From Candidatus Ferrigenium bremense (GTDB lineage: Bacteria; Pseudomonadota; Gammaproteobacteria; Burkholderiales; Gallionellaceae), in contig JAGRPI010000002.1 in the NCBI GenBank assembly GCA_019449635.1, positions 21,749 to 85,748 of the forward strand: DNA of 64,000 nucleotides, given 5' to 3'. Under the pieces are notes generated by a model, which was not told the DNA's origin, did not search any database, and was given only the letters and a program-made list of their open reading frames with translations. The first letter of the stretch is position 1. Each line of letters starts with the position of its first letter. Made by a program: the position numbers and the translations under genes. Shown here piece after piece: positions 7,899 through 47,386 of the stretch.

Positions 7899-7961
7899 AC
7901 GGACTTAAAATCCGTCGAGGCTTAACCCCTCGTACCGGTTCGATTCCGGTTCCGGGCACCA
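7899..7961 (+). other. att site: 3' fragment of tRNA-Leu(TAA)
   Basis: ACGGA-CTTAAAA-TCCGT anticodon arm, long variable arm, GGTTCGATTCC T-arm and CCA end; the 5' acceptor strand and D-arm are missing (AT-rich sequence instead). Confidence 0.9.
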
Positions 7962-7997
7962 ACGAAGGCTTTGAGCGGCAGGCCTCCGCCGCTTGCG

Positions 7998-31239: not shown

Positions 31240-32745
31240 ATGTTAGATATGCGAGCAAGCGGCATATTGCTTCATCCCACTTCGCTTCCCGGCAGGTTCG
31301 GTGCTGGCGACCTTGGGGCGGATGCGTACCGGTTTGTCGATTGGCTGAAAAGTGCCGGTCAGACCTATTGGCAGGTTCTGCCACTGGGCGAAATCGGCCC
31401 CGGTAACTCTCCGTACATGAGCAAATCTGCCTTTGCCGGTAATGTCCTGCTTATCGACCTTGACGAGTTAGCCAGGTACGGGTGGCTGAACCAGAGCGAT
31501 TTGGAACCCCTTCCGGAATTCAATGCCAATCAGGTCGATTTTACCCTGATGCGACCCTTCCACATGGAACGCCTGCGCCGTGCTGCAAAGAGATTCTTTT
31601 TATTAAACAATGAAATGCAGTATGAATATAAAGAGTTCTGTAATGACGAAAAAGTCTGGCTTGATGATTACGCTCTGTTCATGGCAATCGCCGAACATCA
31701 CAACCATCAGGAATGGACTCTCTGGCCAACCGAGCTGGTTCACCGGGACAATCAGGCGTTAAGCAGGGCGAGGAGGGAGTATGCCGATGAGATTGGCTTC
31801 TGGAAATTCTGCCAATGGCGTTTCGCGCACCAGTGGTTCCGCTTGAAAGAATACGCCAACTCGCACGGGATTTGGATTATCGGCGACGTGCCGATATTTG
31901 TCGCCCACCAATGTGCCGACGTGTGGGCACATCAGGAATTATTCAAACTGGATGAAAACGGGTACCCATTGGTGGTTGCCGGGGTGCCGCCCGATTATTT
32001 CAGCGAGACAGGGCAGCTATGGGGAAACCCCGTCTACCACTGGGAAACCCACGAAAAGACAGGTTTTGCATGGTGGGTGGCGCGTATGCGGCATGCGCTA
32101 CACCTTGCCGATCTTGTACGCGTCGACCATTTCCGGGGATTTGCCGCCTATTGGGAGATACCCGCGGATGCGCCCAATGCCATCGACGGAAAATGGGTGC
32201 CCGTTCCCGGAGATAAGCTTTTAAATGCGCTGCAGCAAAGCTTCCCATATCTGCCTATCATCGCAGAGGATCTGGGGGTGATTACCCCTGATGTGATCGA
32301 ACTTCGCGACAAATTCAGACTTCCCGGCATGCGGGTTCTGCATTTCGCCTTTGCAGAGGGCGAAGCCAACCATTTTCTGCCGCATCACTATATTCAGAAT
32401 ACCGTTGCTTATACTGGAACCCATGACAACGATACAACCGTGGGATGGTGGAATTCGGTATCCGCCAATGAAAAAGCCTACGCGCAACAGTACCTGAAGA
32501 GCGATGGCCACGCTATTCAGTGGGATATGATGCGGGCACTCTCAGGCTCGGTGGCGAATACTGTCATTTTTCCCATGCAGGATGTCCTCGGATTGTCCAG
32601 CGAACACCGAATGAACTTTCCGGGTCATCCAGCGGGGAATTGGGAATGGCGCTTCTCATGGCCACAAGTCAGGCAGGAACATACTCAAAAACTGGCCAGG
32701 ATGACTGCCGAGTATGAGCGGCTTTCTTATGGCCTGCAGTCTTGA
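31240..32745 (+). CDS. malQ: 4-alpha-glucanotransferase (GH77)
   Basis: RASGILLHPTSLP, VRVDHFRGF, AEDLG, YTGTHDNDT motifs. Confidence 0.97.
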   Translation: MLDMRASGILLHPTSLPGRFGAGDLGADAYRFVDWLKSAGQTYWQVLPLGEIGPGNSPYMSKSAFAGNVLLIDLDELARYGWLNQSDLEPLPEFNANQVDFTLMRPFHMERLRRAAKRFFLLNNEMQYEYKEFCNDEKVWLDDYALFMAIAEHHNHQEWTLWPTELVHRDNQALSRARREYADEIGFWKFCQWRFAHQWFRLKEYANSHGIWIIGDVPIFVAHQCADVWAHQELFKLDENGYPLVVAGVPPDYFSETGQLWGNPVYHWETHEKTGFAWWVARMRHALHLADLVRVDHFRGFAAYWEIPADAPNAIDGKWVPVPGDKLLNALQQSFPYLPIIAEDLGVITPDVIELRDKFRLPGMRVLHFAFAEGEANHFLPHHYIQNTVAYTGTHDNDTTVGWWNSVSANEKAYAQQYLKSDGHAIQWDMMRALSGSVANTVIFPMQDVLGLSSEHRMNFPGHPAGNWEWRFSWPQVRQEHTQKLARMTAEYERLSYGLQS

Positions 32746-32757
32746 TAGGCGAGAAGC

Positions 32758-32943
32758 TTACGGGGGACACATGGTTTGAAAGATTGGGAAAACCCCAAAA
32801 AATTCTGGGATAAGCAGGGATTACGCTGGTTTTAGCGGGATGGGCATCAATTTTGGGTTTGAAAGATTTCCGGCAAAAATCGAACAAATTATGGCTGGCG
32901 CGGACATGTTGCGACAATCGCGGACACTTGGTTTGAAATATTT
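32758..32943 (+). repeat. Left end with three spaced 22-bp transposase sites
   Basis: GGACACATGGTTTGAAAGATTG (32765-32786), partial CAATTTTGGGTTTGAAAGATTT (32848-32869), GGACACTTGGTTTGAAATATTT (32922-32943). Confidence 0.85.
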
Positions 32944-33162
32944 CCAACACCTTGGAAGCCGCGCCATTATTGGCATCAATAGAAAATCGAGAGGTGAAAA
33001 CAGCAGAAATTGCCGCATGGAATTTACGCGGACATGCGGACATATCGCGGACATTTGTAAAAAACATGTCCGCGCCTCTGTAAACCGCATCAATTCTAGG
33101 TTTCGAGTAGTCTCAAAGAGCAGTCAGAATAAATTGGCTCATGCGGACATTTACGCGGACAT
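32900..33162. repeat. Cluster of GCGGACAT octamers
   Basis: Copies at 32900, 33028, 33036, 33047, 33143, 33155 and an inverted one at 33066. Confidence 0.7.
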
Positions 33163-33184
33163 CCTGCATTGCTTCGGTGGCTGC

Positions 33185-33754
33185 CTACGCTGCTTTAATT
33201 GCAGCTTCAATCATGCTCAGCTCAATGCGTTGCCCACTGGCTTGAGCGGCTTTATAGAGGTGCAAAATGACGCGCGCCTTACTGGAGGTCGATAGAGTCA
33301 ATTTTTTTGTGTCTAGGACAAACTCAAGTTTCTCAAGTATATCCTCAAAAAGCCTTTGATCCAGTAGCAATACAGGGCTTTTTTTCAGTAATGTCAGGAC
33401 GGCTGCATCAGCACCATCTTTAGCACTTTCACCGTGCTGGAAGGCTTTGATTTCATCGTATGCCAACCTACAGGCCGCCCCTAATTCTTCATCGTAAGCG
33501 GTAAGCTGCAAAAAAACTTGAATTGAGTTCAGTACACTCCACAGGGCTTGCTCTTTAGTAGGCTCCCCCGTCAACACATAGGAAACATCTAGCTCAACGC
33601 TTGCCCAGGCGGCCAACACGGCGGCATTGGGAAATGCTGTCCCTTTCTCCCACGCAATTTGCGAGCCTTTTGATGCCCCAGCAAGAGCGGCAAAAGCAGC
33701 TTGGGTATAGCCAAGCCGCTTGCGTTCTTTATTGATGCGTTCGCCTATGGTCAT
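33185..33754 (-). CDS. XRE-family HTH repressor (c-like)
   Basis: IGERINKERKRLGYTQAAFAALAGASKGSQIAWEKG; divergent from ner. Confidence 0.9.
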   Translation of the reverse strand: MTIGERINKERKRLGYTQAAFAALAGASKGSQIAWEKGTAFPNAAVLAAWASVELDVSYVLTGEPTKEQALWSVLNSIQVFLQLTAYDEELGAACRLAYDEIKAFQHGESAKDGADAAVLTLLKKSPVLLLDQRLFEDILEKLEFVLDTKKLTLSTSSKARVILHLYKAAQASGQRIELSMIEAAIKAA

Positions 33755-33804
33755 TTTTAACAAATGAAAATCATTTGTGATATGTAAAAAACTAAATAAT
33801 ATAT

Positions 33805-33834
33805 TTGCACAGGTTGATTATTCTGAACTATTAT
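33805..33834 (+). promoter_or_regulatory. Candidate early promoter
   Basis: TTGCAC-18 nt-TATTAT upstream of ner. Confidence 0.4.
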
Positions 33835-33873
33835 TCCCGTATTGTCGGGAATGTTACCACTTAAGGAGCCATT

Positions 33874-34077
33874 ATGCGCGAGTTAAAAACCCTTGAACAA
33901 GCCAGGAATGAATTCAATTATCGCGGCGAATCCGTGACCGGATGGGCGCGTAAGCATGGATTCAACCCGGAAAGCGTTAAGAAGGTGCTGCACGGAAAGT
34001 CCAAATGTTTGCGCGGCAACGCCCACAATATCGCCGTTTCGCTGGGTATTAAATATGGCGTGATAGTCGAAAGCTGA
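33874..34077 (+). CDS. Ner-like DNA-binding protein
   Basis: RGESVTGWARKHGF...GNAHNIAVSLGIK; Mu Ner position; AAGGAG RBS. Confidence 0.85.
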   Translation: MRELKTLEQARNEFNYRGESVTGWARKHGFNPESVKKVLHGKSKCLRGNAHNIAVSLGIKYGVIVES

Positions 34078-34081
34078 CACC

Positions 34082-36103
34082 TTGAAATCGTCCGCAAATA
34101 TCTTACTGACCGCAGCCGATGCCGCGCAGCTTTGCAGGCTGTCAGTTCGCCACATACGCCGCCATTGCACAGCCGGAAAATACACCGGCGTAATCAAACA
34201 AACAGACGGCTGGATTATCCCGCTGAACTCCCTGCCAACAGCCGCGCAACTGCAATACATGGACGCGCAGCCTGCCACGGAAGCAAGCACGCCGCTTGCC
34301 GGATTGCCCGTTGTTGCTACAGTCCCCGCCGCCATTGATGCCGACGCGATGCACCTGGCATACCGCCGCGCCCCGAAAAAATCCAAAGCCCGCGCGGATC
34401 GGCTATGCGCCGCCGTGATGGAGTTTGAAGAACTCCGCGCAACGGGCGAAACAAAGAGCAATGCCGAAGCCCACGTTAAGGCCGCATACAATATTTCCCC
34501 GGCGACGCTATGGCGCGCCCGCGACGTGGTGAAAGGATGGTCGCGCGAATTGTGGGCGGCGTTGCTGTTGCCCTGTTACAAAGGCCGTACCAAAGAGGCC
34601 GAATTAACGGGGGATGCGTGGGAATGGATACAAGCCCGCTGGCTTTCCACATCAGAGCCGCCCGCGCACGTTGTCATCAAGGAAGCCAGGAAAGAAGGCA
34701 AAGCGCGCGGCTGGGCGCTTCCATCGGATAAAACCATCATCCGCAAACTCAACGCCATGCCTGCGCCAATTGTCTTGCTGGGGCGCAAGGGCAAAGAGGT
34801 TTTCGACGCGACGTTCCCGGCAGCGGAGCGGGACTTTGCGGCGTACGGCCTGCATGAAGTCTGGGTGTCCGATGGGCGGCGCGTGGACGTATTTTGTCGC
34901 TGGCCGGATGGCACGGTAAGCCGCCCGTTTATCGTGGCATGGTGCGATATGCGCACCCGCAAGGTGCTGGGCACGCGCGGCGGAGTAAATCCATCCGGCA
35001 ATCTCACTCTGGCTTCATTCCATGCAGCCCTGTCGCGCGCAGGTATCAAACCCAAGCGCGCCCTGTTGGACAATGGCCACGAGTATGCCGCAAAGTCTGT
35101 AACGGGCGGGCAGAAGACGCGTTACCGCTTCAAAATAAAAGAGGGTGAACCCATCGGCGCGTTGACGCGCATGGATGTTACAGCGGACTGGGCGCGCCCC
35201 TATCGCGGGCAGGAAAAACCCATTGAATCCTTTTGGAAGTACATTGCCAACCACCTGGATAAACTGCCGGAATTCCAGGGTGCATACTGCGGCAAAAATA
35301 CCGTATCCAAGCCGGAAGACTTGGACAGAGGCAAAGCCATTCCGATTGAGATTTACGCCGCCAAGCTGGCGGAAGTGCTGGAAGAATTCAACCGCCGCCC
35401 ACATCGCGGGCGCGGCATGGACGGAAAATCCCCTGCACAGCTTGATGACGAGTTAATGCAAGCTGATCCGCACAAGGAATGGGCGCGTCCTACCGCCGAA
35501 CACCTGCGCTTGCTATGTCTTGAACAACGAACATTAACCCTCAACAACAAGGATGCCAGTATCAGCTTCAAATTTACCGGTTATGGCGAAGTGCGCTATT
35601 GGTCTGAGGTTTTGGCTGATTTGCCAATGGCTGCACGCTCCAAAAAATACGCCGTATTCCACAACCCGGAAGATCCAGACATTCCCGTTGTAATCTATGA
35701 CGGGGAGCGCATGGTATGCGAAGCAGCGCGTATTGGTGCGGTTGGTAGCAAGCAAGCCGCCGCACAGCACTGCATCAACAAAGCAGGATTCAAAAAACCA
35801 CGTGCAGCCGCCTTCAAAACAATCAGGCAAGCAGCACCAATTACATTGCCCACGCCCGCCGCGCCGCTGTCTATCCAGTCCGTCACCATCGAAAAACCTG
35901 CCACCCCGGTAATGCCATCCGAGCCGCCCAAACTAAAGGAATTATCGCCCGGTGTGTGGTATGACCCCGAACAGGGAAAAACTATTGGCAAGGGCAAATC
36001 TGCCAAGCCAACCAGCCAACTGGACGATGAATCAATCGAAAAATACCGGCGCATTAAGGAAGCGCGCGAAAGCGAACGCATGAAGCGTTTCGGTACGGCA
36101 TAA
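34082..36103 (+). CDS. MuA-like DDE transposase
   Basis: N-terminal HTH; WVSDG (D), LLDNGHEY (D), EKPIES (E); C-terminal FNRRPHRG. Confidence 0.92.
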   Translation: MKSSANILLTAADAAQLCRLSVRHIRRHCTAGKYTGVIKQTDGWIIPLNSLPTAAQLQYMDAQPATEASTPLAGLPVVATVPAAIDADAMHLAYRRAPKKSKARADRLCAAVMEFEELRATGETKSNAEAHVKAAYNISPATLWRARDVVKGWSRELWAALLLPCYKGRTKEAELTGDAWEWIQARWLSTSEPPAHVVIKEARKEGKARGWALPSDKTIIRKLNAMPAPIVLLGRKGKEVFDATFPAAERDFAAYGLHEVWVSDGRRVDVFCRWPDGTVSRPFIVAWCDMRTRKVLGTRGGVNPSGNLTLASFHAALSRAGIKPKRALLDNGHEYAAKSVTGGQKTRYRFKIKEGEPIGALTRMDVTADWARPYRGQEKPIESFWKYIANHLDKLPEFQGAYCGKNTVSKPEDLDRGKAIPIEIYAAKLAEVLEEFNRRPHRGRGMDGKSPAQLDDELMQADPHKEWARPTAEHLRLLCLEQRTLTLNNKDASISFKFTGYGEVRYWSEVLADLPMAARSKKYAVFHNPEDPDIPVVIYDGERMVCEAARIGAVGSKQAAAQHCINKAGFKKPRAAAFKTIRQAAPITLPTPAAPLSIQSVTIEKPATPVMPSEPPKLKELSPGVWYDPEQGKTIGKGKSAKPTSQLDDESIEKYRRIKEARESERMKRFGTA

Positions 36104-36121
36104 ACCAACGAAAGGAACGCT

Positions 36122-37159
36122 ATGCAAGATACTGAAACGAAAGACGTGTATGGTGAATACAAAAAACGCTGGAAACAGCTCACCGACCGTGTTGCCGACG
36201 AATTGGCGCAAGGCTTCACGCTGAACAGAATCGTTATCGAAGCGGAGTTACATCTGATTGGCGGTGGCGGATCATGTGCCCTGGATCGCCTACGCGCCTG
36301 GTTAGAAAGCCCAAATGCATTGCGCGGCGAAAGCCGCTACGTCGGGCAATTAAGCGTAGCCGACGAAATGGAGAAAAAACTGTCCGCGTGGTTTGAACAA
36401 TTGGATATTGAGCGTGCTGCCGCCAAAACCACCGCCCCCGCCTTTATCGAAACCGCAGTATCGCGCAAGATATGGAGCAGCTTCGAGCAAGCGCGCGAGT
36501 TGTGCGAACTCATGGAAATATCTGCTCCGCCAGGCACAGGCAAAACACATGCAATTCAGCCCTATCTAGCCCAATGCCGCAAGCGTGAGGGCTTTGGCTG
36601 TCCGGTATGGCACATCACCTTGAGCGAGTTTTCTGTATCGCTCAAAAGCGTGTTGCAACTCATCACCGCCGAAGTGCAGCCGGATCATGCCAGCAGCGGG
36701 CGCGAGGACAAGGACTTTTCCAGCGTGCGCATGATCGAAGAGCACACGGAAGGGCGTGGTGGTCTGTTGATCGTGGACGAAGCGCAGCATATCGGCGATG
36801 CCGACAAACTGCACGGCATCCGCATCCTTAACGGCTTGCGCTACTTCACTGATCGCAAGCTGTTCGGCATCGCCTTCCTGAGCAACGGCGAAATATACCG
36901 CCGCGTAGCAGGCGGTAAACATGGGCAGCTATCCAGCCGCATGGAAGCCTCGCGCGTGGAAATCAAAGGTGTGCCGGATGAAGATGTAGATTTAATCATG
37001 GCCGCGCACTGCATCGGCGGCAAACCAGCGCGCGAATGGTGCCTAAAAAAGGCCAAAGGGGCAGGGGGCTTGCGCGCCCTGACGCGCGCATTCAGCCATG
37101 CCCGGCGCGAATTCGGCGAAGTGAATCACCAAACCTTGACCATGCTGGGAAGGCTGTAA
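36122..37159 (+). CDS. MuB-like AAA+ transposition ATPase
   Basis: Walker A APPGTGKT, Walker B LLIVDEAQH; follows the transposase. Confidence 0.92.
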   Translation: MQDTETKDVYGEYKKRWKQLTDRVADELAQGFTLNRIVIEAELHLIGGGGSCALDRLRAWLESPNALRGESRYVGQLSVADEMEKKLSAWFEQLDIERAAAKTTAPAFIETAVSRKIWSSFEQARELCELMEISAPPGTGKTHAIQPYLAQCRKREGFGCPVWHITLSEFSVSLKSVLQLITAEVQPDHASSGREDKDFSSVRMIEEHTEGRGGLLIVDEAQHIGDADKLHGIRILNGLRYFTDRKLFGIAFLSNGEIYRRVAGGKHGQLSSRMEASRVEIKGVPDEDVDLIMAAHCIGGKPAREWCLKKAKGAGGLRALTRAFSHARREFGEVNHQTLTMLGRL

Positions 37160-37161
37160 CC

Positions 37162-37599
37162 ATGCCCGCCGCGCGCCGTGCCACACTATCCGCCACCTGC
37201 ATCAAGCAAGTCCAGATTGCACGGAAGCGGCTGGATATGAGCGATGCAGATTACCGCGCCTTGTTGCAGCGCGTGGCGGGTGTGTCTTCATCCACCGAAC
37301 TGACACCGGCGGGCTTCGCACTGGTCATGGACGAATTCGCCAGGCTGGGGTTTATCTCTACTGCCCGCCATGAAGCCGCCATGCAGGAAAGCCGCGCGCC
37401 GTGGGCGGCAAGCTACGCGCAGCGCAGCAGGATCGCCGCCATGTGGGACGCGTGGAAAGGCAAGCATGACCCGGATGGTTTGCGCCGCTGGCTGGAACAC
37501 CATCACGGCGTATCTGATGTGCGCTTTTGTTCGGCGGAAAAGGCCAGCAAGATTATCGGCGCACTATCGGGATTCAAGAAAAAACCGGAAACGAATTAG
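37162..37599 (+). CDS. gemA: GemA (Mu gp16)-like protein
   Basis: IKQVQIARKRLDMSDADYRALL...SSTELT...VMDEFARLGF signature. Confidence 0.85.
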   Translation: MPAARRATLSATCIKQVQIARKRLDMSDADYRALLQRVAGVSSSTELTPAGFALVMDEFARLGFISTARHEAAMQESRAPWAASYAQRSRIAAMWDAWKGKHDPDGLRRWLEHHHGVSDVRFCSAEKASKIIGALSGFKKKPETN

Positions 37600-37609
37600 C
37601 TTGAAAAAA

Positions 37610-37687
37610 GGGCGGCGGCGGGACTCGAACCGCGCATAATTCGCTGCTTTCGCAGTGTAGCCATTACCTATCGGCGGACAGCCACCC
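37610..37687 (-). ncRNA. tRNA-like fold 1 (non-canonical)
   Basis: Minus strand: GGGTGGC/GCCGCCC acceptor-like stem, D-like arm GCCG-ATAGGTAA-TGGC, CTGC-GAAA-GCAG in place of an anticodon arm, GGTTCGAGTCC T-loop; a T6 tract follows; no CCA. Confidence 0.55.
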
Positions 37688-38044
37688 AATCGGAACTATA
37701 AGCACGGTTGCCATGACGCGCAACCCACGACCGCTTAAAACGCGATTTAAGCCGTTAAACTTTTTCAGTGGCATCCAGCCATTGCCGCGTCACCGTGCGC
37801 GGCTTCGTAGTGCCTTGCGGTGGTGCTTGCGTCGATATTTAAAAGCGGGAAAGGGTGGGGTTTTGCAACTTTGCCGGAGAATTGGCGGGTGGGGTGTGTA
37901 GCTGCGGGAGTTGATGCTGCGCTTTCACGCCCCCCAACCTAAAACGTCCGAAACGTAACCGCATCTGCTACACGCTGGCAGTATGGCGCAATGCTGCGTT
38001 TACTGCAATTGGTGGGGCTGCGCCTGGTAGCCTTTCATTGATTA

Positions 38045-38128
38045 TTCAAGGCAGCGAGCGGATTCGAACCGCCTCACACAGACCGGAATCTGCCCCGTCA
38101 ACCAGTATTTCGGGTTCTCTGCCTTGAA
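38045..38128 (-). ncRNA. tRNA-like fold 2 (non-canonical)
   Basis: Minus strand: 10-bp TTCAAGGCAG/CTGCCTTGAA closing stem, GGCGG-TTCGAAT-CCGCT T-arm, two internal arms, no 7-nt anticodon loop. Confidence 0.55.
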
Positions 38129-38204
38129 AGTGACCATAACATAGGCTGCCCATCGGAAGCAATCTTACCTTCCGGCCTCTGCTGGTGGCGCACAAAAAAA
38201 CCGC

Positions 38205-38233
38205 TTGATATTTCTCCCGCTAATCCGCAGAAT
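38205..38233 (+). promoter_or_regulatory. Candidate promoter of the C4-controlled operon
   Basis: TTGATA-17 nt-CAGAAT. Confidence 0.45.
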
Positions 38234-38344
38234 GCCAACCGTCACGCAAAACTCGTGATGCGAGTTTAGTAGCTCGGAGTTCAAGGCGGACAACCGCCCC
38301 CAGTGCGGTTTTTTTACGTCCGTAAGCATGGCAGGCCAAGTTTT

Positions 38345-38415
38345 GGCGGGCTGTGCGGGGCATCTTCGGATGCGCCGGTTCCTTGACCCGGTCTACTAAC
38401 CTGCACAGTTCCGCC
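38345..38415 (+). ncRNA. C4-type antisense RNA (P1/P7 c4-like)
   Basis: Three-way fold GGCGGGCTGTGCGGG/CCTGCACAGTTCCGCC, GCATC-TTCG-GATGC and CCGG-loop-CCGG. Unpaired TCCTTGA and CTACTAA match target pairs upstream (38264-38286) and downstream (38421-38461). Confidence 0.8.
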
Positions 38416-38469
38416 TCCTCGTTTAGTAGCGGGGGAGCGGGAAATTCAAACCGTTCAAGGAGAATTACC

Positions 38470-38754
38470 ATGACTCAAGCCACACTAGGCGCAACCGCGC
38501 CCGTTCTGATTCACCCCCAAACCCAAACCCTCGCGCATCACAACATCGCGCAATATCGCGCCATTAAGTTTGTATCTGACCGCATCGCGGAAGCGGACGC
38601 ATCGCAATGGCATGGCGGCTATATCCACGGCCTGATTCAAGCCCTGACCATGACAAGCACGATCACCGTTGAACAGGCCAGCAAGCTGGAGCAGGCGCAA
38701 GAACAAGCATCCTGCAAAACCTTCAACCGCCGCGCGGCAGGGGGTGCAGCATGA
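38470..38754 (+). CDS. Hypothetical protein (94 aa), first gene under C4 control
   Basis: AAGGAG RBS overlapped by the C4 target TCAAGGA; ATGA overlap with the next gene. Confidence 0.7.
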   Translation: MTQATLGATAPVLIHPQTQTLAHHNIAQYRAIKFVSDRIAEADASQWHGGYIHGLIQALTMTSTITVEQASKLEQAQEQASCKTFNRRAAGGAA

Positions 38755-39377
38755 ACGCCAAAACCACCTTGCCGCCAGACTGGAAGCCCGCCGCCTTTAA
38801 CCCAAACTTCAACGCGACTGACGAATTCGAAGAACAGCAATACCAGCTTGACCGCTTGCGTTGTGTGCTCAATGTTTTGTCTGATCTAGCCAGCGCCAGC
38901 GGAGATGATTGCCAGCGCGCCACCGTACAACTACGCCGCGAAGATTTGGCGGGCGTTTTCCTGTTGTTGCGTGATACGGTTGCGGTCACGGCGGAACGGA
39001 ATGAGTTGACGCACAAGCATGTATGCAATCTCTGGGGCTGGGAAAAAATGCAGGCCGAACGCGAATTGAACAATGTAGCAGCAGCGGCCAATGAACGCCG
39101 CAGCGATGGCGAGGAAAACCGCATCAGGCCGACCATGCTGGCGCAGATCATCACGGCAATTAGCGGGCAGCGCCCGATTTTGGGAAGTGACATGAACCGT
39201 ATAACCCAACGGCTTCGCGATTGCGCCGAGGCAGACGAGGATATGCAACCCGCTTCTGCCGCTTGGGAAGCGTTTGTCACGGCTGAAGGCGGGCCGGCGA
39301 TTACCACGTGTGAAGGTTTCTATATCAAATACTATCCGGTGCGTGGGGAAGTTGTCGGACAAACAGACGAAGCCTGA
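38751..39377 (+). CDS. Hypothetical protein (208 aa)
   Basis: Translationally coupled ORF followed by a terminator. Confidence 0.7.
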   Translation: MNAKTTLPPDWKPAAFNPNFNATDEFEEQQYQLDRLRCVLNVLSDLASASGDDCQRATVQLRREDLAGVFLLLRDTVAVTAERNELTHKHVCNLWGWEKMQAERELNNVAAAANERRSDGEENRIRPTMLAQIITAISGQRPILGSDMNRITQRLRDCAEADEDMQPASAAWEAFVTAEGGPAITTCEGFYIKYYPVRGEVVGQTDEA

Positions 39378-39401
39378 CCACGCTGCCCACAACCACACTA
39401 C

Positions 39402-39429
39402 AGCCCCCCGCAAGGGGGCTTTCTCTTTT
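39402..39429 (+). terminator. Intrinsic terminator
   Basis: AGCCCCC-CGCAA-GGGGGCT then TTCTCTTTT. Confidence 0.8.
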
Positions 39430-39628
39430 GACGGGTTGACAATGATTTTCGCCTGACGAAACCAGCAGAGCAGGGCGGCCATAAGTGGGCGAGAAAAGGT
39501 AAGCGCCCGACCGCCCCATGCGCACTATGCCAAGGCATGGAGTCTGCATCTATAGGAACCCGTTCCGGCTTATCCCCCCGCCTTCAGGCGGATACAGTTC
39601 CGCCATAAACTTGAGCAAGGGGTAGAGG

Positions 39629-40018
39629 ATGCGCAGTTTTGTTTTATCGCGGGCACAGGCGGCCAATTATCCGGGGGTGTTTCAAGAGGCCGTGCAGCTT
39701 ATCGGGGAAGAGGCGGCGGCCAAGCTGGTAGTGCAATACGGCGGTGTGCGCCTGTATATCCCGCACACAGCTAAGCCTAACCATACCTTGTGTCAATTGC
39801 TGGGGCAGGAAATCGCGCAGCAGTTGTGTGGTGAATTCGCTGGCCTGACTTTAGATATTCCGCGCGGCTACATATTGCAGGTCGCGCTGCGCAACAAGCT
39901 GGTTATGGCGGATCGCGCGGCGGGTATGTCACAGCGTGAACTGGCGCTCAAACACCACCTGACCGAAAGAACTATCCGCAAAATCGTTAACCGTTCCAGC
40001 AGCACAAACCACCTCTAG
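39629..40018 (+). CDS. mor: Mor/C-family transcription activator
   Basis: YGGVRLYIP, RNKLVMAD...GMSQRELALKHHLTERTIRKIV. Confidence 0.88.
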   Translation: MRSFVLSRAQAANYPGVFQEAVQLIGEEAAAKLVVQYGGVRLYIPHTAKPNHTLCQLLGQEIAQQLCGEFAGLTLDIPRGYILQVALRNKLVMADRAAGMSQRELALKHHLTERTIRKIVNRSSSTNHL

Positions 40019-40031
40019 AAAAGGAAAAATC

Positions 40032-40658
40032 ATGGCTCTTACCCAGCAGGAAATGGACACATTCAACCAGGTAAAAAACATCGTTGCCGCACTGCAAGCT
40101 GAATATGCGGACGTGTGCGCAAACATTGAAGCCACCGAAAAGCAGCTTGCGGAACTGCCGCTGTTACCGGTGCCTGTTGCCGACTTAAAGGCCGCCATAC
40201 TCGACTTTGTAGATGCTCGCGGCCAAGATTATTTGGGCGAATTCGTAAAGAGCTCCATTAAGGATTTTGCGACTAACGCGATGGGTGGATCGAGTGTTTC
40301 CGCAAATCTGATGGGGTCACCTCTCAGATTCAAAGAATTGGAGAGTGCGTGTTCAGGCAATAACGGCGCCATATCTAACGCCCAACTGATAACGCAGTTT
40401 GGGAAAGGGCAGTTTAACGACCTGGCTTTGTATGCGTTTTTTGGGGATATGGTGAAGGCCGGGTTGAACAATGTCATGGCTACCATGACGGATGAGGATT
40501 TCGGTTATGCCAAGTTAACGCCGGAGCAGATCGGCACGGATCGCGCAACCCGCCGCCTCGCTATTCAAGCCGCGCAAGATCAACTGGCCGCGTTGCGCGA
40601 AAGTAAAGCAACCCTTGCAAGCAGTCTGCGGCAGTTGGGCATAACGGTTAATGGGTAA
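40032..40658 (+). CDS. Hypothetical helical/coiled-coil protein (208 aa)
   Basis: AAAGGA RBS; heptad-like N- and C-terminal helices; overlaps the protease start. Confidence 0.75.
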   Translation: MALTQQEMDTFNQVKNIVAALQAEYADVCANIEATEKQLAELPLLPVPVADLKAAILDFVDARGQDYLGEFVKSSIKDFATNAMGGSSVSANLMGSPLRFKELESACSGNNGAISNAQLITQFGKGQFNDLALYAFFGDMVKAGLNNVMATMTDEDFGYAKLTPEQIGTDRATRRLAIQAAQDQLAALRESKATLASSLRQLGITVNG

Positions 40659-41262
40659 AGTCATGAGCGCGCTGGCAGCTTGTACTGCGTCCCCATTGGC
40701 TGGGGCGGAAAAAACTATCCGCCTGATTCCGGCAGGCCTGTTTCGTACTACCGATGGCCGCCCGGCTGGCTTGCCAGGCTGGACACTGACCGCGAGCAAC
40801 GCGGCGGCGATTATCAAAGCCGCCGCATCGAGGGCGGATGATTTTCTGATCGACTACGAACACCAGACCTTACACGCCAGCAAAAGCGGACAACCCGCCC
40901 CGGCTGCGGGCTGGTTTAAACGGCTGGAATGGCGCGAAGGGCAGGGATTGTTTGCGGTAGACGTGCGCTGGACTGCGCGCGCCTCGGCAATGATTATTGC
41001 CCGCGAATACCGCTACATTTCGCCTGTGTTCGGCTTTGACGCAAAAACAGGTGAGGTACAAAGCCTGCGTGCCGCCGCTATTACCAATGATCCGGCATTA
41101 GACGGCCTGACAGATATTGCAGCGGCCAAGCGGCAAGCAAGTGACGTTACGCAACGTAGTAGCATGTCCGAATACAACCGCCCCATGACCCAACACGAGC
41201 GCGACCACGCAAACAGAGTTCTGCGCCATTGTTTTGGCGATGCCGCCACATTCATCAAGTAA
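40651..41262 (+). CDS. Mu-like prohead protease I domain, short (203 aa)
   Basis: LIDYEHQT, APAAGW, VRWTARA, EYRYISPVF, AITNDPALDGL; lacks the long scaffold-containing C-terminal half typical of Mu I. Confidence 0.88.
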   Translation: MGKVMSALAACTASPLAGAEKTIRLIPAGLFRTTDGRPAGLPGWTLTASNAAAIIKAAASRADDFLIDYEHQTLHASKSGQPAPAAGWFKRLEWREGQGLFAVDVRWTARASAMIIAREYRYISPVFGFDAKTGEVQSLRAAAITNDPALDGLTDIAAAKRQASDVTQRSSMSEYNRPMTQHERDHANRVLRHCFGDAATFIK

Positions 41263-41457
41263 CCAAGCACAAAGAATGAGGGGGATGGCGTTTGCAAGCT
41301 TCCATGCTTTCACTTGCAGACTTCTCCGCCCTTCAGGGCAAAGCAACCGGGGCGAGAAGTGCGCCATAGCCCAGGATGCGCCCGCAACATGGCACACATG
41401 GGCAACCTGTTTTAACCGACGCCGACCGCAAGCCCCGGCTGCGCAACAGGTAAAGCA

Positions 41458-41491
41458 GAGGCCGGGATTTAACCCCCGGCCTTTGTTTTTT
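41458..41491 (+). terminator. Intrinsic terminator near the right end
   Basis: GGCCGGG-ATTTAACC-CCCGGCC then TTTGTTTTTT. Confidence 0.75.
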
Positions 41492-41536
41492 GTGCATACT
41501 GCAAAAGGTTTTTGCATGGTTAAACTAGGGCGGGGA

Positions 41537-41609
41537 AAATCTTTCAAATCAAGTGTCCAAATCTTTCAAATCAAGTGTCCAAATCTTTCAAACCATGTGT
41601 CCGCCGTCA
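41537..41609 (-). repeat. Right end with three contiguous 22-bp transposase sites and terminal CA
   Basis: AAATCTTTCAAATCAAGTGTCC x2 (41537-41580), AAATCTTTCAAACCATGTGTCC (41581-41602), then GCCGTCA. Confidence 0.92.
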
Positions 41610-41825
41610 GAAGCATTAGATTCGCAACTAATTGAATGTTTATTGAAAGCACAATATTTGCGATTTAACATAATATACATTATGCGTATTAGGCGGGTCA
41701 GGAACCCGGAATGGTTTCCGGAACAGTTTCGCTCGTTTTGCTGCTCTTCCGTGCCTGGCGGTTCGCCAGAACCTGTTCGCGGTGCGCCTTCGTCAGCCTA
41801 TCGACCGCTTCCGGTGTTAGCCGGT

Positions 41826-46901: not shown

Positions 46902-46978
46902 TGGGGTGGCTGATGGGACTCGAACCCACGACAACTGGAATCACAATCCAGGACTCTACCAACTGAGCTACAGCCACC
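46902..46978 (-). tRNA. tRNA-His(GTG)
   Basis: Full cloverleaf with G-1, anticodon GTG, CCA. Confidence 0.97.
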
Positions 46979-47060
46979 ACTGATGAAGCAATTAGCCATT
47001 CGGCAGAGCCGATAAACAACATCGGCGAGCCGCTGGTTATGAACTTTGCTTGTCTGACAC

Positions 47061-47137
47061 TGGCGTGCCCGACAGGAATCGAACCTGTAACCCCCAGCTT
47101 AGAAGGCTGGTGCTCTATCCGGTTGAGCTACGGGCAC
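47061..47137 (-). tRNA. tRNA-Arg(TCT)
   Basis: Full cloverleaf, anticodon loop CTTCTAA, CCA. Confidence 0.97.
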
Positions 47138-47309
47138 AATTCTTTTCTCTATAAATCCAGATTTCATCCCAACTGCTGCGTTGCGTAAAAAATTTCTTGC
47201 TTGCATATAAAGCATATGCGGCGCTGCGAAATTTTTTCCACGCCCTGCATTTGGGCGAACTCTGAATTTCTAGAGCCACCCTAGGGCTAATTAAAAAGCT
47301 GCTGAAACC

Positions 47310-47386
47310 TGGTCGGGGTGGAGAGATTCGAACTCCCGACATCCTGCTCCCAAAGCAGGCGCGCTACCAGGCTACGCTACACCCCG
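47310..47386 (-). tRNA. tRNA-Pro(TGG)
   Basis: Full cloverleaf, anticodon loop TTTGGGA, CCA. Confidence 0.97.

Follow-up and report, generated by a model that had tools for sequence, protein, structure and literature searches.

A compact Mu-derived transposable element beside the predicted dif site of a Gallionellaceae chromosome and its possible role as a satellite of Mu-like phages

A 64,000-nucleotide stretch of the genome of Candidatus Ferrigenium bremense (Gallionellaceae; contig JAGRPI010000002.1, positions 21,749 to 85,748), hereafter the window, contains an element of 8,852 bp that has the ends and the early genes of a Mu-like phage and a single recognisable virion gene. Such a locus raises the question of whether the element is what remains of a prophage or a mobile element in its own right and, if the latter, how it makes its living. 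A reading made from the sequence alone had proposed a streamlined transposable satellite that keeps a late activator and a head-assembly factor to exploit or jam a Mu-like helper, with a prophage that had suffered one large internal deletion as the alternative. Here we describe a recurrent family of such elements, one sub-lineage of which is found beside the chromosomal dif site, and on balance we favour, with moderate confidence, the explanation that the window element is an intact, dif-homing, Mu-derived transposable element that acts as a hitcher or satellite of full-size Mu-like phages.

The element is bounded by Mu-type end repeats and by two copies of the pentamer GAAGC (Table 1), and its ends, duplication and length are as the sequence-only reading had them. 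Over 33 nt the two termini form an inverted repeat with 91% complementarity, and the left boundary has independent support from a relative in run X13 that begins exactly at the position corresponding to window 32758, beside a different flank. The 21-nt end motif GGACACNTGGTTTGAAAGATT is present five times in the window and at the element ends only, with two copies at the left and three in tandem at the right, where none would be expected by chance; this predicted layout of end repeats matches that of attL and attR of Mu. The left terminus reads 5'-TT and the right terminus ...CA, a departure from the canonical TG...CA. The same 5'-TT is found in the relatives L004 and L087, and L097 has TG; because relatives with duplications of their own share the TT, it is not a defect of the window copy.

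Gene identities, which come from Pfam and PHROG profile matches to the window proteins (Table 1), bear out an uninterrupted c-ner-A-B-gemA order, followed by a module with a C4 RNA, by mor and by a short gpI-type protease gene that is closed by a hairpin and T-run. This hairpin is apparent in the sequence itself and in an alignment fold and was not picked up by a simple terminator scan. Where a single gene without assignment had been counted there are three, orf94, orf208a and orf208b; orf208a has no Pfam, PHROG or PADLOC match and is absent or replaced in L004, L087, L090 and L097. The genes mor, orf208b and protease form a separate unit bounded on both sides by the terminators given in Table 1. 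The protease, which matches only positions 1-151 of the 330-position Mu-like_Pro profile, supplies the sole virion match of the element: no terminase, portal, capsid, tail or endolysin gene is present among its Pfam and PHROG matches, the spare open reading frames (ORFs) in its gaps match no phage family, in keeping with the earlier remark that virion and lysis remnants are missing, and its coding density leaves no space for further genes of either kind. All of its ORFs and both of its ends are intact, and the duplication is perfect.

The same order, c on the minus strand followed by ner-A-B-gemA, a region of RNA and small ORFs, and mor-orf208b-short protease, recurs in metagenome and genome contexts. 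The loci with the full gene order are L004 (a Gallionella metagenome-assembled genome), L085, L086, L087, L090-L096, L097/L098, L053 and L113; looser relatives (L006, L008, L015, L058, L063, L084, L089 and L122) keep the early region, mor and the short protease and vary in their last genes. There are more than ten independent, diverged copies with protein identities of 23-96%, the A proteins of different lineages being 23-63% identical, and one contig of 8,454 bp (L087) starts and ends exactly at the element termini. The short protease has hundreds of relatives, the closest of which (>65% identity) are all 186-228 aa long and in several cases lie on contigs of 7.4-9 kb, and orf208b has 37 relative clusters, nearly all of 203-213 aa. 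The family consists of compact (~7.8-8.9 kb) Mu-derived transposable elements, the window copy being intact and probably still able to move, and as a family of miniature Mu-type elements it is previously undescribed.

Selection appears to have kept these genes. The ratio of nonsynonymous to synonymous substitution rates (dN/dS), calculated against L090, which is close enough for synonymous sites to be unsaturated, is 0.10 for B, 0.12 for gemA, 0.13 for the protease and 0.17 for orf208b; orf94 gives 0.27-0.36. These comparisons, which include the check on the late genes that the sequence-only reading had proposed, indicate purifying selection on each of the genes tested (B, gemA, orf94, mor, orf208b and protease), weakest for mor. 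The family is also a mosaic, with the window and L097 proteases 83% identical and the corresponding A and B proteins 38% and 42% identical, respectively; the head cassette of orf208b and protease is thus, by these alignments, the most conserved part of the element and occurs with more than one kind of transposition module. Neighbour-joining on the protease domain (61 sampled sequences, midpoint-rooted and without bootstrap) groups all 32 short forms in one clade and the 29 full-length forms in the other. H71, within DYEHQ, and S124, within ISPVF, are invariant in the 32 short proteases and presumably form the catalytic pair.

Individual members depart from this scheme in several ways. L087 has ends of a different type (TTAGGGGGGAAGATTGAA...), both termini of which read TT...AA, and contains, at 7905-7972, a further right end of the window type inside the contig, with a 111-aa ORF after it; this inner end suggests that the transposition module and the ends have been exchanged within the family. 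In L089 the protease is replaced by a capsid gene, gpT, which follows orf208b. Among distant compact Mu-like elements, a tape-measure-like gene comes after the short protease in L006, L061 and L080, a baseplate gene (gpP) in L022 and gpG in L015, and host genes follow the single late gene in L006 and L015.

Could these elements nevertheless be decaying Mu-like prophages, which have lost their late region through one or a few deletions and whose remaining genes are drifting? Decay would account for the solo right-end stubs that lie next to dif, for the damaged left end of L053 and for the odd tape-measure, gpG and baseplate leftovers just described. However, the same compact order and the same junctions recur among elements whose A proteins are 23-63% identical, the ORFs, ends and duplication of the window copy are intact, dN/dS lies between 0.10 and 0.17 for B, gemA, orf208b and protease, and the short proteases stand apart from phage proteases in the sampled tree. 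Furthermore, orf208b is absent from 50,697 phage records, so that it is no leftover of a known phage type, and at the DNA level the element has one 91-bp match to one record of that collection, which contains no collinear full-size phage. We give this explanation hardly any credence. In particular, because of the recurrence, the purifying selection, the separate protease clade and the absence of orf208b from phage records, origin of the element from a prophage by a single large deletion is very unlikely. Nothing of what the sequence-only reading had named as counting against it, namely an arrangement unique to this locus, a single deletion junction and neutrally evolving genes, was found, and comparison of the family members points instead to a streamlined and long-lived lineage.

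That reading had overlooked a site 53 bp past the right end of the element. A stretch of 24 nt within it is identical to E. coli K-12 1,590,750-1,590,773, between yneL and hipA, which from its position and sequence we take to be dif, and a 41-nt query spanning the site matches a single place on the chromosome in almost every one of 5,426 E. coli genomes. The site is single in the window, the cumulative GC skew peaks at 38-42 kb of the window, and the polarity of GGGNAGGG, a motif resembling the FtsK-orienting polar sequences, switches at it (5/5 on the plus strand to its left and 5/5 on the minus strand to its right). Because of the identity with K-12, the single copy, the skew peak and the switch in polarity, we regard 41663-41690 as the predicted dif of this chromosome, with the window spanning the replication terminus. 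Two of the plus-strand GGGNAGGG motifs lie inside the element and point toward dif.

At a similar distance past the right end, the motif ATTT(A/G)ACATAATATACATTATGCG was first noticed in the window and L004; every relative that has this right end proved to carry it as well. Ten metagenome contigs carry the exact right-end sequence, and in nine of them dif follows 42-49 bp further on. Twelve of 13 right-end contexts, representing 12 distinct spacers, have dif at a gap of 42-56 bp, always with the element on the XerD side and its right end proximal; L101 is the one exception to this adjacency. The motif is found nowhere else in 1.59 Mb of related loci. The recurrence of the gene set at other sites with their own duplications, which had been suggested as a check, is borne out by four insertions with perfect duplications, GAAGC in the window, GGGTA in L004, ACAGC in L097/L098 and ACTTT in L090/X13, and runs X8 and X9 contain an empty site, in which the 3' end of malQ is joined directly to dif at ~4x the depth of the element-like sequence there. 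The insertions are independent of one another, because their spacers are unrelated, their duplications separate and the site also exists empty. The notion that the dif motif is part of the element was rejected, since the four duplications directly abut ...CCGTCA, the spacers are unrelated and the empty site joins malQ to the motif.

In the window malQ lies on the XerD side of dif and in L004 on its XerC side, and the element is on the XerD side in both. Since the XerD side is kept despite the inverted malQ arm, it is dif that the element appears to read and not the direction of the chromosome arm. We note that malQ (GH77) and its GH57 neighbour adjoin dif at window 31240-32745 and at L004 11090-12619, on opposite sides, and that the orientation of dif relative to the chromosome arms differs between the window bacterium and L004. 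No dif was found beside the members with the other end type (L085, L086 and L087) or beside the looser relatives, and on the loci compared here homing to dif is a trait of one sub-lineage only. Within that sub-lineage the contexts indicate insertion that is targeted, Tn7-like and site-specific as opposed to near-random, and this is a second, concrete novelty beside the compact Mu-like family itself.

The dif region has a history of further traffic. Right-end stubs of 50-90 bp or partial elements are found 42-49 bp from dif in L102, L104, L109, L105 and L100, with host genes directly upstream; those of L102, L104 and L109 are solo stubs, and in many genomes remains of such elements have piled up on the XerD side of dif. 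Elements and stubs mark the terminus region of many Betaproteobacteria, a point of use in annotation, and are overlooked by virus-finding pipelines. L097 (8342-16474) and L098 (8164-8246) are otherwise identical copies that part right after the XerC arm of dif, and beyond dif L097 has a small phage-like island (endolysin, DNA methyltransferase and small ATPase), which probably entered at dif through Xer recombination. A similar split is seen in L102 and L107.

Comparable transposition systems are known. In Tn7, the CRISPR-associated transposons, Tn5053/Tn402 and Tn552, too, a MuA/TnsB-type transposase works with an AAA+ partner, and the target duplication is 5 bp long. In Tn7 and the CRISPR-associated transposons the AAA+ partner, nucleated at a selector, sets the point of insertion and the right end faces the selector, and Tn5053 and Tn552 insert at res sites. 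The element resembles the Tn7-type systems in being orientation-specific, in keeping a set, short distance from its target, to which the right end lies closest, and in using a conserved or recombination-site target as a safe harbour. It differs from them in lacking a recognised TnsA, TniQ or TnsD, in having dif as target and not glmS, a protospacer or a serine-resolvase res site, in a gap (42-56 bp) that is less tight than that of Tn7, and in carrying the regulatory genes of a temperate phage. None of its 10 proteins has a TniQ, TnsD, TnsE, CRISPR-effector or TnsA domain that was recognised by Pfam or PHROG. It represents a natural MuA/MuB machine with strict target choice and no recognisable TniQ or TnsD. 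As dif is present once in almost every bacterial chromosome, control of insertion distance by an AAA+ protein becomes directly testable, and the targeting of dif suggests a compact, host-independent system for safe-harbour insertion.

Insertion at dif as such is known from insertion sequences of the IS1202 family (ISAjo2 group), which have a TnsB/MuA-like transposase, insert with a single orientation beside dif on chromosomes and pdif on plasmids, and leave 5-bp duplications; these are 1.5-kb, single-gene insertion sequences that lie 5 bp from the XerC arm (PMC10132070). The window element, by contrast, is 8.85 kb long, has more than 10 genes, among them a B-type ATPase, and its sub-lineage lies 42-56 bp from the XerD arm. 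It has the same chromosomal address, dif, as the integrative mobile elements exploiting Xer (CTXphi, TLC, VGJ and GGI), which enter dif through Xer recombination and of which L097 appears to have one on the XerC side of its dif. Membership of this last group was rejected, because there is a single intact dif 53 bp away, flanking dif-like repeats are missing, and the element has transposon ends and a 5-bp duplication.

The link to phage heads lies in the cassette of orf208b and short protease. The protease domain matches 287 phage records, all at less than 60% identity, and the matches listed are Mu-like phages of 31-42 kb in which the gene is annotated I or I/Z. The C-terminal tail of the short proteases was compared with the extreme C-terminus of full-length gpI; only the tail of P0031 beats shuffled controls, and that of the window protein does not. 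For orf208b, which matches nothing among the 50,697 phage and 72,556 plasmid records, an AlphaFold model (pLDDT, the predicted local distance difference test, of 91) gives a long helical coiled coil, and fold searches against PDB and BFVD returned generic coiled-coil matches only, all with E > 0.1. The modelled shape is compatible with a scaffold-like role and does not demonstrate one. The idea that orf208b is a diverged gpZ, the scaffold half of gpI, is unsupported, with a profile-profile probability of 1.3%.

The cassette also occurs outside the family. The viral contig L112 (7172-14768, IMG/VR UViG_3300002520_000018) carries the portal, F and G genes of a Mu-like phage together with an I gene ending after 195 aa, behind which come a tyrosine integrase, a relative of orf208b, a short protease of 254 aa, a primase and DUF927. 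By its gene content this is a P4-type integrase/primase island with the same cassette, situated at the point at which a Mu-like prophage's I gene breaks off. The L112 island may integrate into its helper's own protease/scaffold gene, with the right junction lying beyond the contig. In L192 (9365-20684, from the isolate Craterilacuibacter sinensis, WSSB01000005.1) a relative of orf208b, a short protease of 227 aa and genes for AlpA-like and Mor proteins adjoin a Mu-like prophage at its baseplate and tail genes, and neither a transposase nor an integrase is present. Occurrence of one cassette on two unrelated mobile backbones is what would be expected of a module that hijacks or blocks capsids, and orf208b with the short protease would thus constitute a new portable module aimed at head assembly, present on no fewer than two mobile backbones of unrelated type and a candidate for capsid hijack or anti-assembly.

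These findings are relevant to the possibility that the element is an autonomous, dif-specific transposon of Mu ancestry without a present tie to phages, spread by plasmids or ordinary transduction in the manner of Tn7 and the transposons that seek res sites, its phage-like genes regulating transposition or being mere baggage. In its favour are the intact A and B, on which selection acts, the failure to find a helper, and the known insertion of IS1202-family elements near recombination sites, namely dif and pdif (PMC10132070). It is much less easily reconciled with the failure of orf208b to match any of the 72,556 plasmid records, with a protease that keeps its conserved motifs at a dN/dS of 0.13 and is hard to explain as baggage, with the recurrence of the cassette on a non-transposon backbone associated with Mu-like head genes, or with the exchange of the protease for a capsid gene in L089. 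We consider this origin quite improbable.

A second possibility dispenses with packaging: the element, or at least its cassette of orf208b and protease, would be an anti-phage island, which sabotages the assembly or maturation of Mu-like procapsids and so protects the cell or a prophage, and whose transposition genes serve only to place and keep it at dif. At L012 (9432-10634) a relative of orf208b (190 aa) and a short protease (206 aa) stand between the host genes CheR and RlmM, with a dif-like site overlapping the protease stop codon and with no A, B or ends. The cassette may have stayed intact beside dif by serving the host as a defence, which fits it at least as well as a satellite role does. 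The L192 cassette lies beside the tail end of a Mu-like prophage, the usual site of Mu-type accessory genes, the protease domain is the most conserved part across swapped transposition modules, and the window element is single-copy, quiet in situ and absent from viral contig collections, as a resident defence island might be. On the other hand, 5,027 PADLOC defence models gave no match except weak helix-turn-helix (HTH) matches of the repressor, and pure defence has no need of a c/ner switch, mor, gemA or Mu ends conserved among elements with A proteins 23-63% identical. A P4-type island that includes a primase, the sort of backbone that packaged satellites typically have, likewise carries the cassette. 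An island of this kind, which we think unlikely, overlaps with the explanation that we favour, as satellites such as PLE, elements that resemble phage-inducible chromosomal islands, both defend their hosts and get packaged.

We return to the reading of the element as a dif-homing hitcher or satellite of Mu-like phages. In common with Mu, D3112, B3, BcepMu and RS138 it has the early order c-ner-A-B-gemA and a DDE_2 transposase with a MuB-type ATPase, and it shares with Mu-like phages several transposase-binding repeats at either end, a duplication of 5 bp, a mor gene and a protease domain like that of gpI. It departs from them in its size (8.85 kb as against 31-42 kb), in having no terminase, portal, capsid, tail or lysis genes, in a protease without the scaffold half, in possessing orf208b and a P1-type C4 module, in site-specific insertion at dif in place of near-random insertion, and in a left terminus of TT, not TG. 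With the P4-like satellites, the phage-inducible chromosomal islands (PICI) and their capsid-forming relatives (cfPICI), PLE and the phage-inducible chromosomal minimalist islands (PICMI) it has in common small size, a partial virion set, repression when resident and a fixed chromosomal address. Its late-gene activator compares with P4 delta and its head-assembly genes with Sid, CpmB and the cfPICI protease; it has a module of the immunity or antirepressor type, and its head cassette is also found on a P4-type island. It is unlike these satellites in moving by DDE transposition, without a tyrosine or serine integrase and without a primase-type replicon. To our knowledge the described satellites all integrate by tyrosine or serine recombinases, and a literature search found no paper on a transposing satellite or on a Mu-like dif hunter.

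Several properties expected of a satellite are thus present. The element has an incomplete virion set and yet keeps mor, the short gpI protease and orf208b, through which it would act on a helper, and it belongs to a recurrent, conserved family of more than ten diverged members, which is not the pattern of sporadic prophage debris. It has no integrase; a DDE transposase takes that place, and site specificity is still achieved. Of the earlier proposal, the streamlined lineage has therefore held up, through recurrence, selection and the protease clade, and the link to heads has been strengthened by L112 and L192; satellite behaviour, in the sense of helper use and packaging, is plausible.

A number of observations weigh against it. 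In the source sample, which covers this organism at ~4,500x, the depth of the element DNA equals that of its flanks, so that it is present as a single copy and does not replicate there. Transcripts in situ are strongest, within the element, over the c region, the small-RNA regions and 41336-41496 are transcribed as well, and levels of A and B are low; the single copy is thus mostly silent in the source population. The 64-kb window contains no full-size Mu-like prophage. The exact right-end sequence is absent from IMG/VR viral contigs, as are close relatives of the protease, the best being 61% identical and the short form being present in only 3 of 80 viral loci. Neither a helper nor packaging nor small capsids are directly attested, and neither profile nor fold comparison detects similarity of orf208b to known scaffolds. 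Members decay in place, several dif sites keeping only decayed right-end stubs, and the left terminus of L053 is short of ~14 nt, which makes its duplication unreadable. The mechanism of targeting is conjecture throughout, with no recognised candidate for the selector.

A model of how the element works is as follows. The element entered by MuA/MuB-type transposition, as its ends and duplication show. XerD bound at dif, or else the dif DNA as such, would provide the point on the XerD side at which the AAA+ protein B is nucleated, and B would set the distance and the orientation of strand transfer, as in Tn7 and the CRISPR-associated transposons, with dif offering a safe and universally conserved landing site. 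Once resident, the element would be kept quiet by the c/ner switch and the C4 module. Mor could couple it to the late programme of a helper, whose procapsid the scaffold-less protease and orf208b would enter or re-shape, and the Mu-type ends could let the headful machinery of the helper package the element. Because Mu-type packaging is headful from the left end, an element of 8.85 kb could travel in normal heads together with terminus DNA, and small capsids would not be needed. In the next host the A protein would reintegrate it at dif. The net effect on the helper might be exploitation or interference, and the model accommodates either. We also put forward, as a possibility that we take seriously without being persuaded of it, that these elements are the first recognised satellites to move by DDE transposition, homing to dif by means of a B-ATPase ruler that is nucleated on its XerD side and riding or wrecking Mu-like heads by a cassette shared with P4-type islands. 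If true, a transposing branch would be added to the phage satellites, and Mu-like phages, which are common in Proteobacteria, would be opened up as a group of helpers.

Table 1. Coordinates of the element, its genes and noncoding features, and the neighbouring dif site (window positions).
Feature	Position	Strand	Remarks
Left copy of 5-bp target-site duplication	32753-32757		GAAGC, read directly from the sequence
Whole element	32758-41609	+	5'-TTACGGGGGACAC ... GTGTCCGCCGTCA-3'
Left-end transposase-binding repeats (predicted)	32765-32942	+	L1 32765-32785; weaker copy 32855-32870; L3 32922-32942
Cluster of GCGGACAT repeats with 14-nt perfect palindrome pair	32897-33170		Between left-end repeats and c stop codon
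c-like repressor	33185-33763	-	192 aa; N-terminal HTH; Pfam HTH_19 and PHROG repressor families
c-ner gap	33764-33873		Divergent promoter-like boxes, consensus matches only
ner-like small DNA-binding protein	33874-34077	+	67 aa; PHROG 925, E = 5e-25
A, MuA-type DDE transposase	34082-36103	+	673 aa; Pfam DDE_2 (E = 3e-28), HTH_Tnp_Mu_2; PHROG 310 (E = 5e-87)
B, MuB-type AAA+ target-capture ATPase	36122-37159	+	345 aa; Pfam AAA_22, Phage-MuB_C; PHROG 296
gemA	37162-37599	+	145 aa; Pfam GemA, E = 3e-21
Two tRNA-like 3' halves (T-arm and acceptor)	37611-37633 and 38050-38072	-	Within 37611-38125
Conserved noncoding block	37893-37976	+	84 nt; closed by 15-bp stem GTGTAGCTGCGG / CCGCATCTGCTACAC
isrK-like small RNA	38242-38315	+	Rfam 39.4 bits, under gathering threshold of 50
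C4 antisense RNA (P1/P7 ImmI type)	38339-38421	+	RF01695, 61.9 bits against gathering threshold of 45
orf94	38470-38754	+	No assigned function; first gene after C4; kept in L004, L087, L090, L097
orf208a	38751-39377	+	Variable cargo slot; terminator follows at 39402-39430
mor, homologue of Mu middle-operon activator	39629-40018	+	129 aa; Pfam Mor (E = 2e-15); PHROG 836 (E = 2e-31)
orf208b	40032-40658	+	Conserved all-helical coiled-coil protein, always partnered with a head gene
Short gpI, prohead protease domain only	40651-41262	+	203 aa; conserved C-terminal tail; without scaffold (gpZ) half
Conserved structured noncoding region	41336-41496	+	Between protease and right end; ends in terminator hairpin at ~41452-41492
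Right-end transposase-binding repeats R3, R2, R1 (predicted)	41537-41609	-	Three tandem 22-mers and terminus ...CCGCCGTCA
Right copy of 5-bp target-site duplication	41610-41614		GAAGC, identical to left pentamer
Chromosomal dif site (predicted target, outside element)	41663-41690	-	XerC arm, central TGTATA, XerD arm TTATGTTAAAT; XerD arm faces element, 53 bp away

The element is rich in noncoding features, the most prominent being a stretch of 870 bp after gemA that contains the C4 and isrK-like RNAs. The C4 match spans model positions 1-87, and a C4 RNA is found at the same position in L004, L085, L087, L090 and L097, these five scoring 60-66 bits; orf94, immediately downstream, has the position of icd in P1. 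The isrK-like RNA has its own promoter-like box (38205-38233) and terminator (38292-38316), and its copy in L085 scores 52.8 bits. The 84-nt block is near-invariant in five members whose proteins are 25-70% identical, so that it has too few changes for a covariation test; it sits roughly in the middle of the element and could be an RNA or a DNA site.

The region between the protease gene and the right end is found in all family members, regardless of end type. RNAalifold on seven members predicts 42 pairs there, 10 of them with compensatory changes, the region has a weak ar35-like match in Rfam, and its transcript depth in metatranscriptomes is above that of the protease gene; it is a candidate small RNA or cis-acting site. 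At the other end of the element, the repeat cluster next to the c gene includes the perfect inverted pair GGCGCGGACATGTT / AACATGTCCGCGCC, and is possibly an enhancer- or operator-like array.

Each of the two tRNA-like halves consists of a T-arm with a TTCGA loop and an acceptor strand. The first copy is common to L090 and L097, and the second can be folded on paper into an almost complete cloverleaf whose anticodon loop has 6 nt; the reading of both as tRNA genes was rejected, as ARAGORN finds no tRNA at these places or in six relatives. Beyond dif, the window has an ordinary cluster of tRNA-His, tRNA-Arg and tRNA-Pro genes at 46902-47386 on the minus strand.

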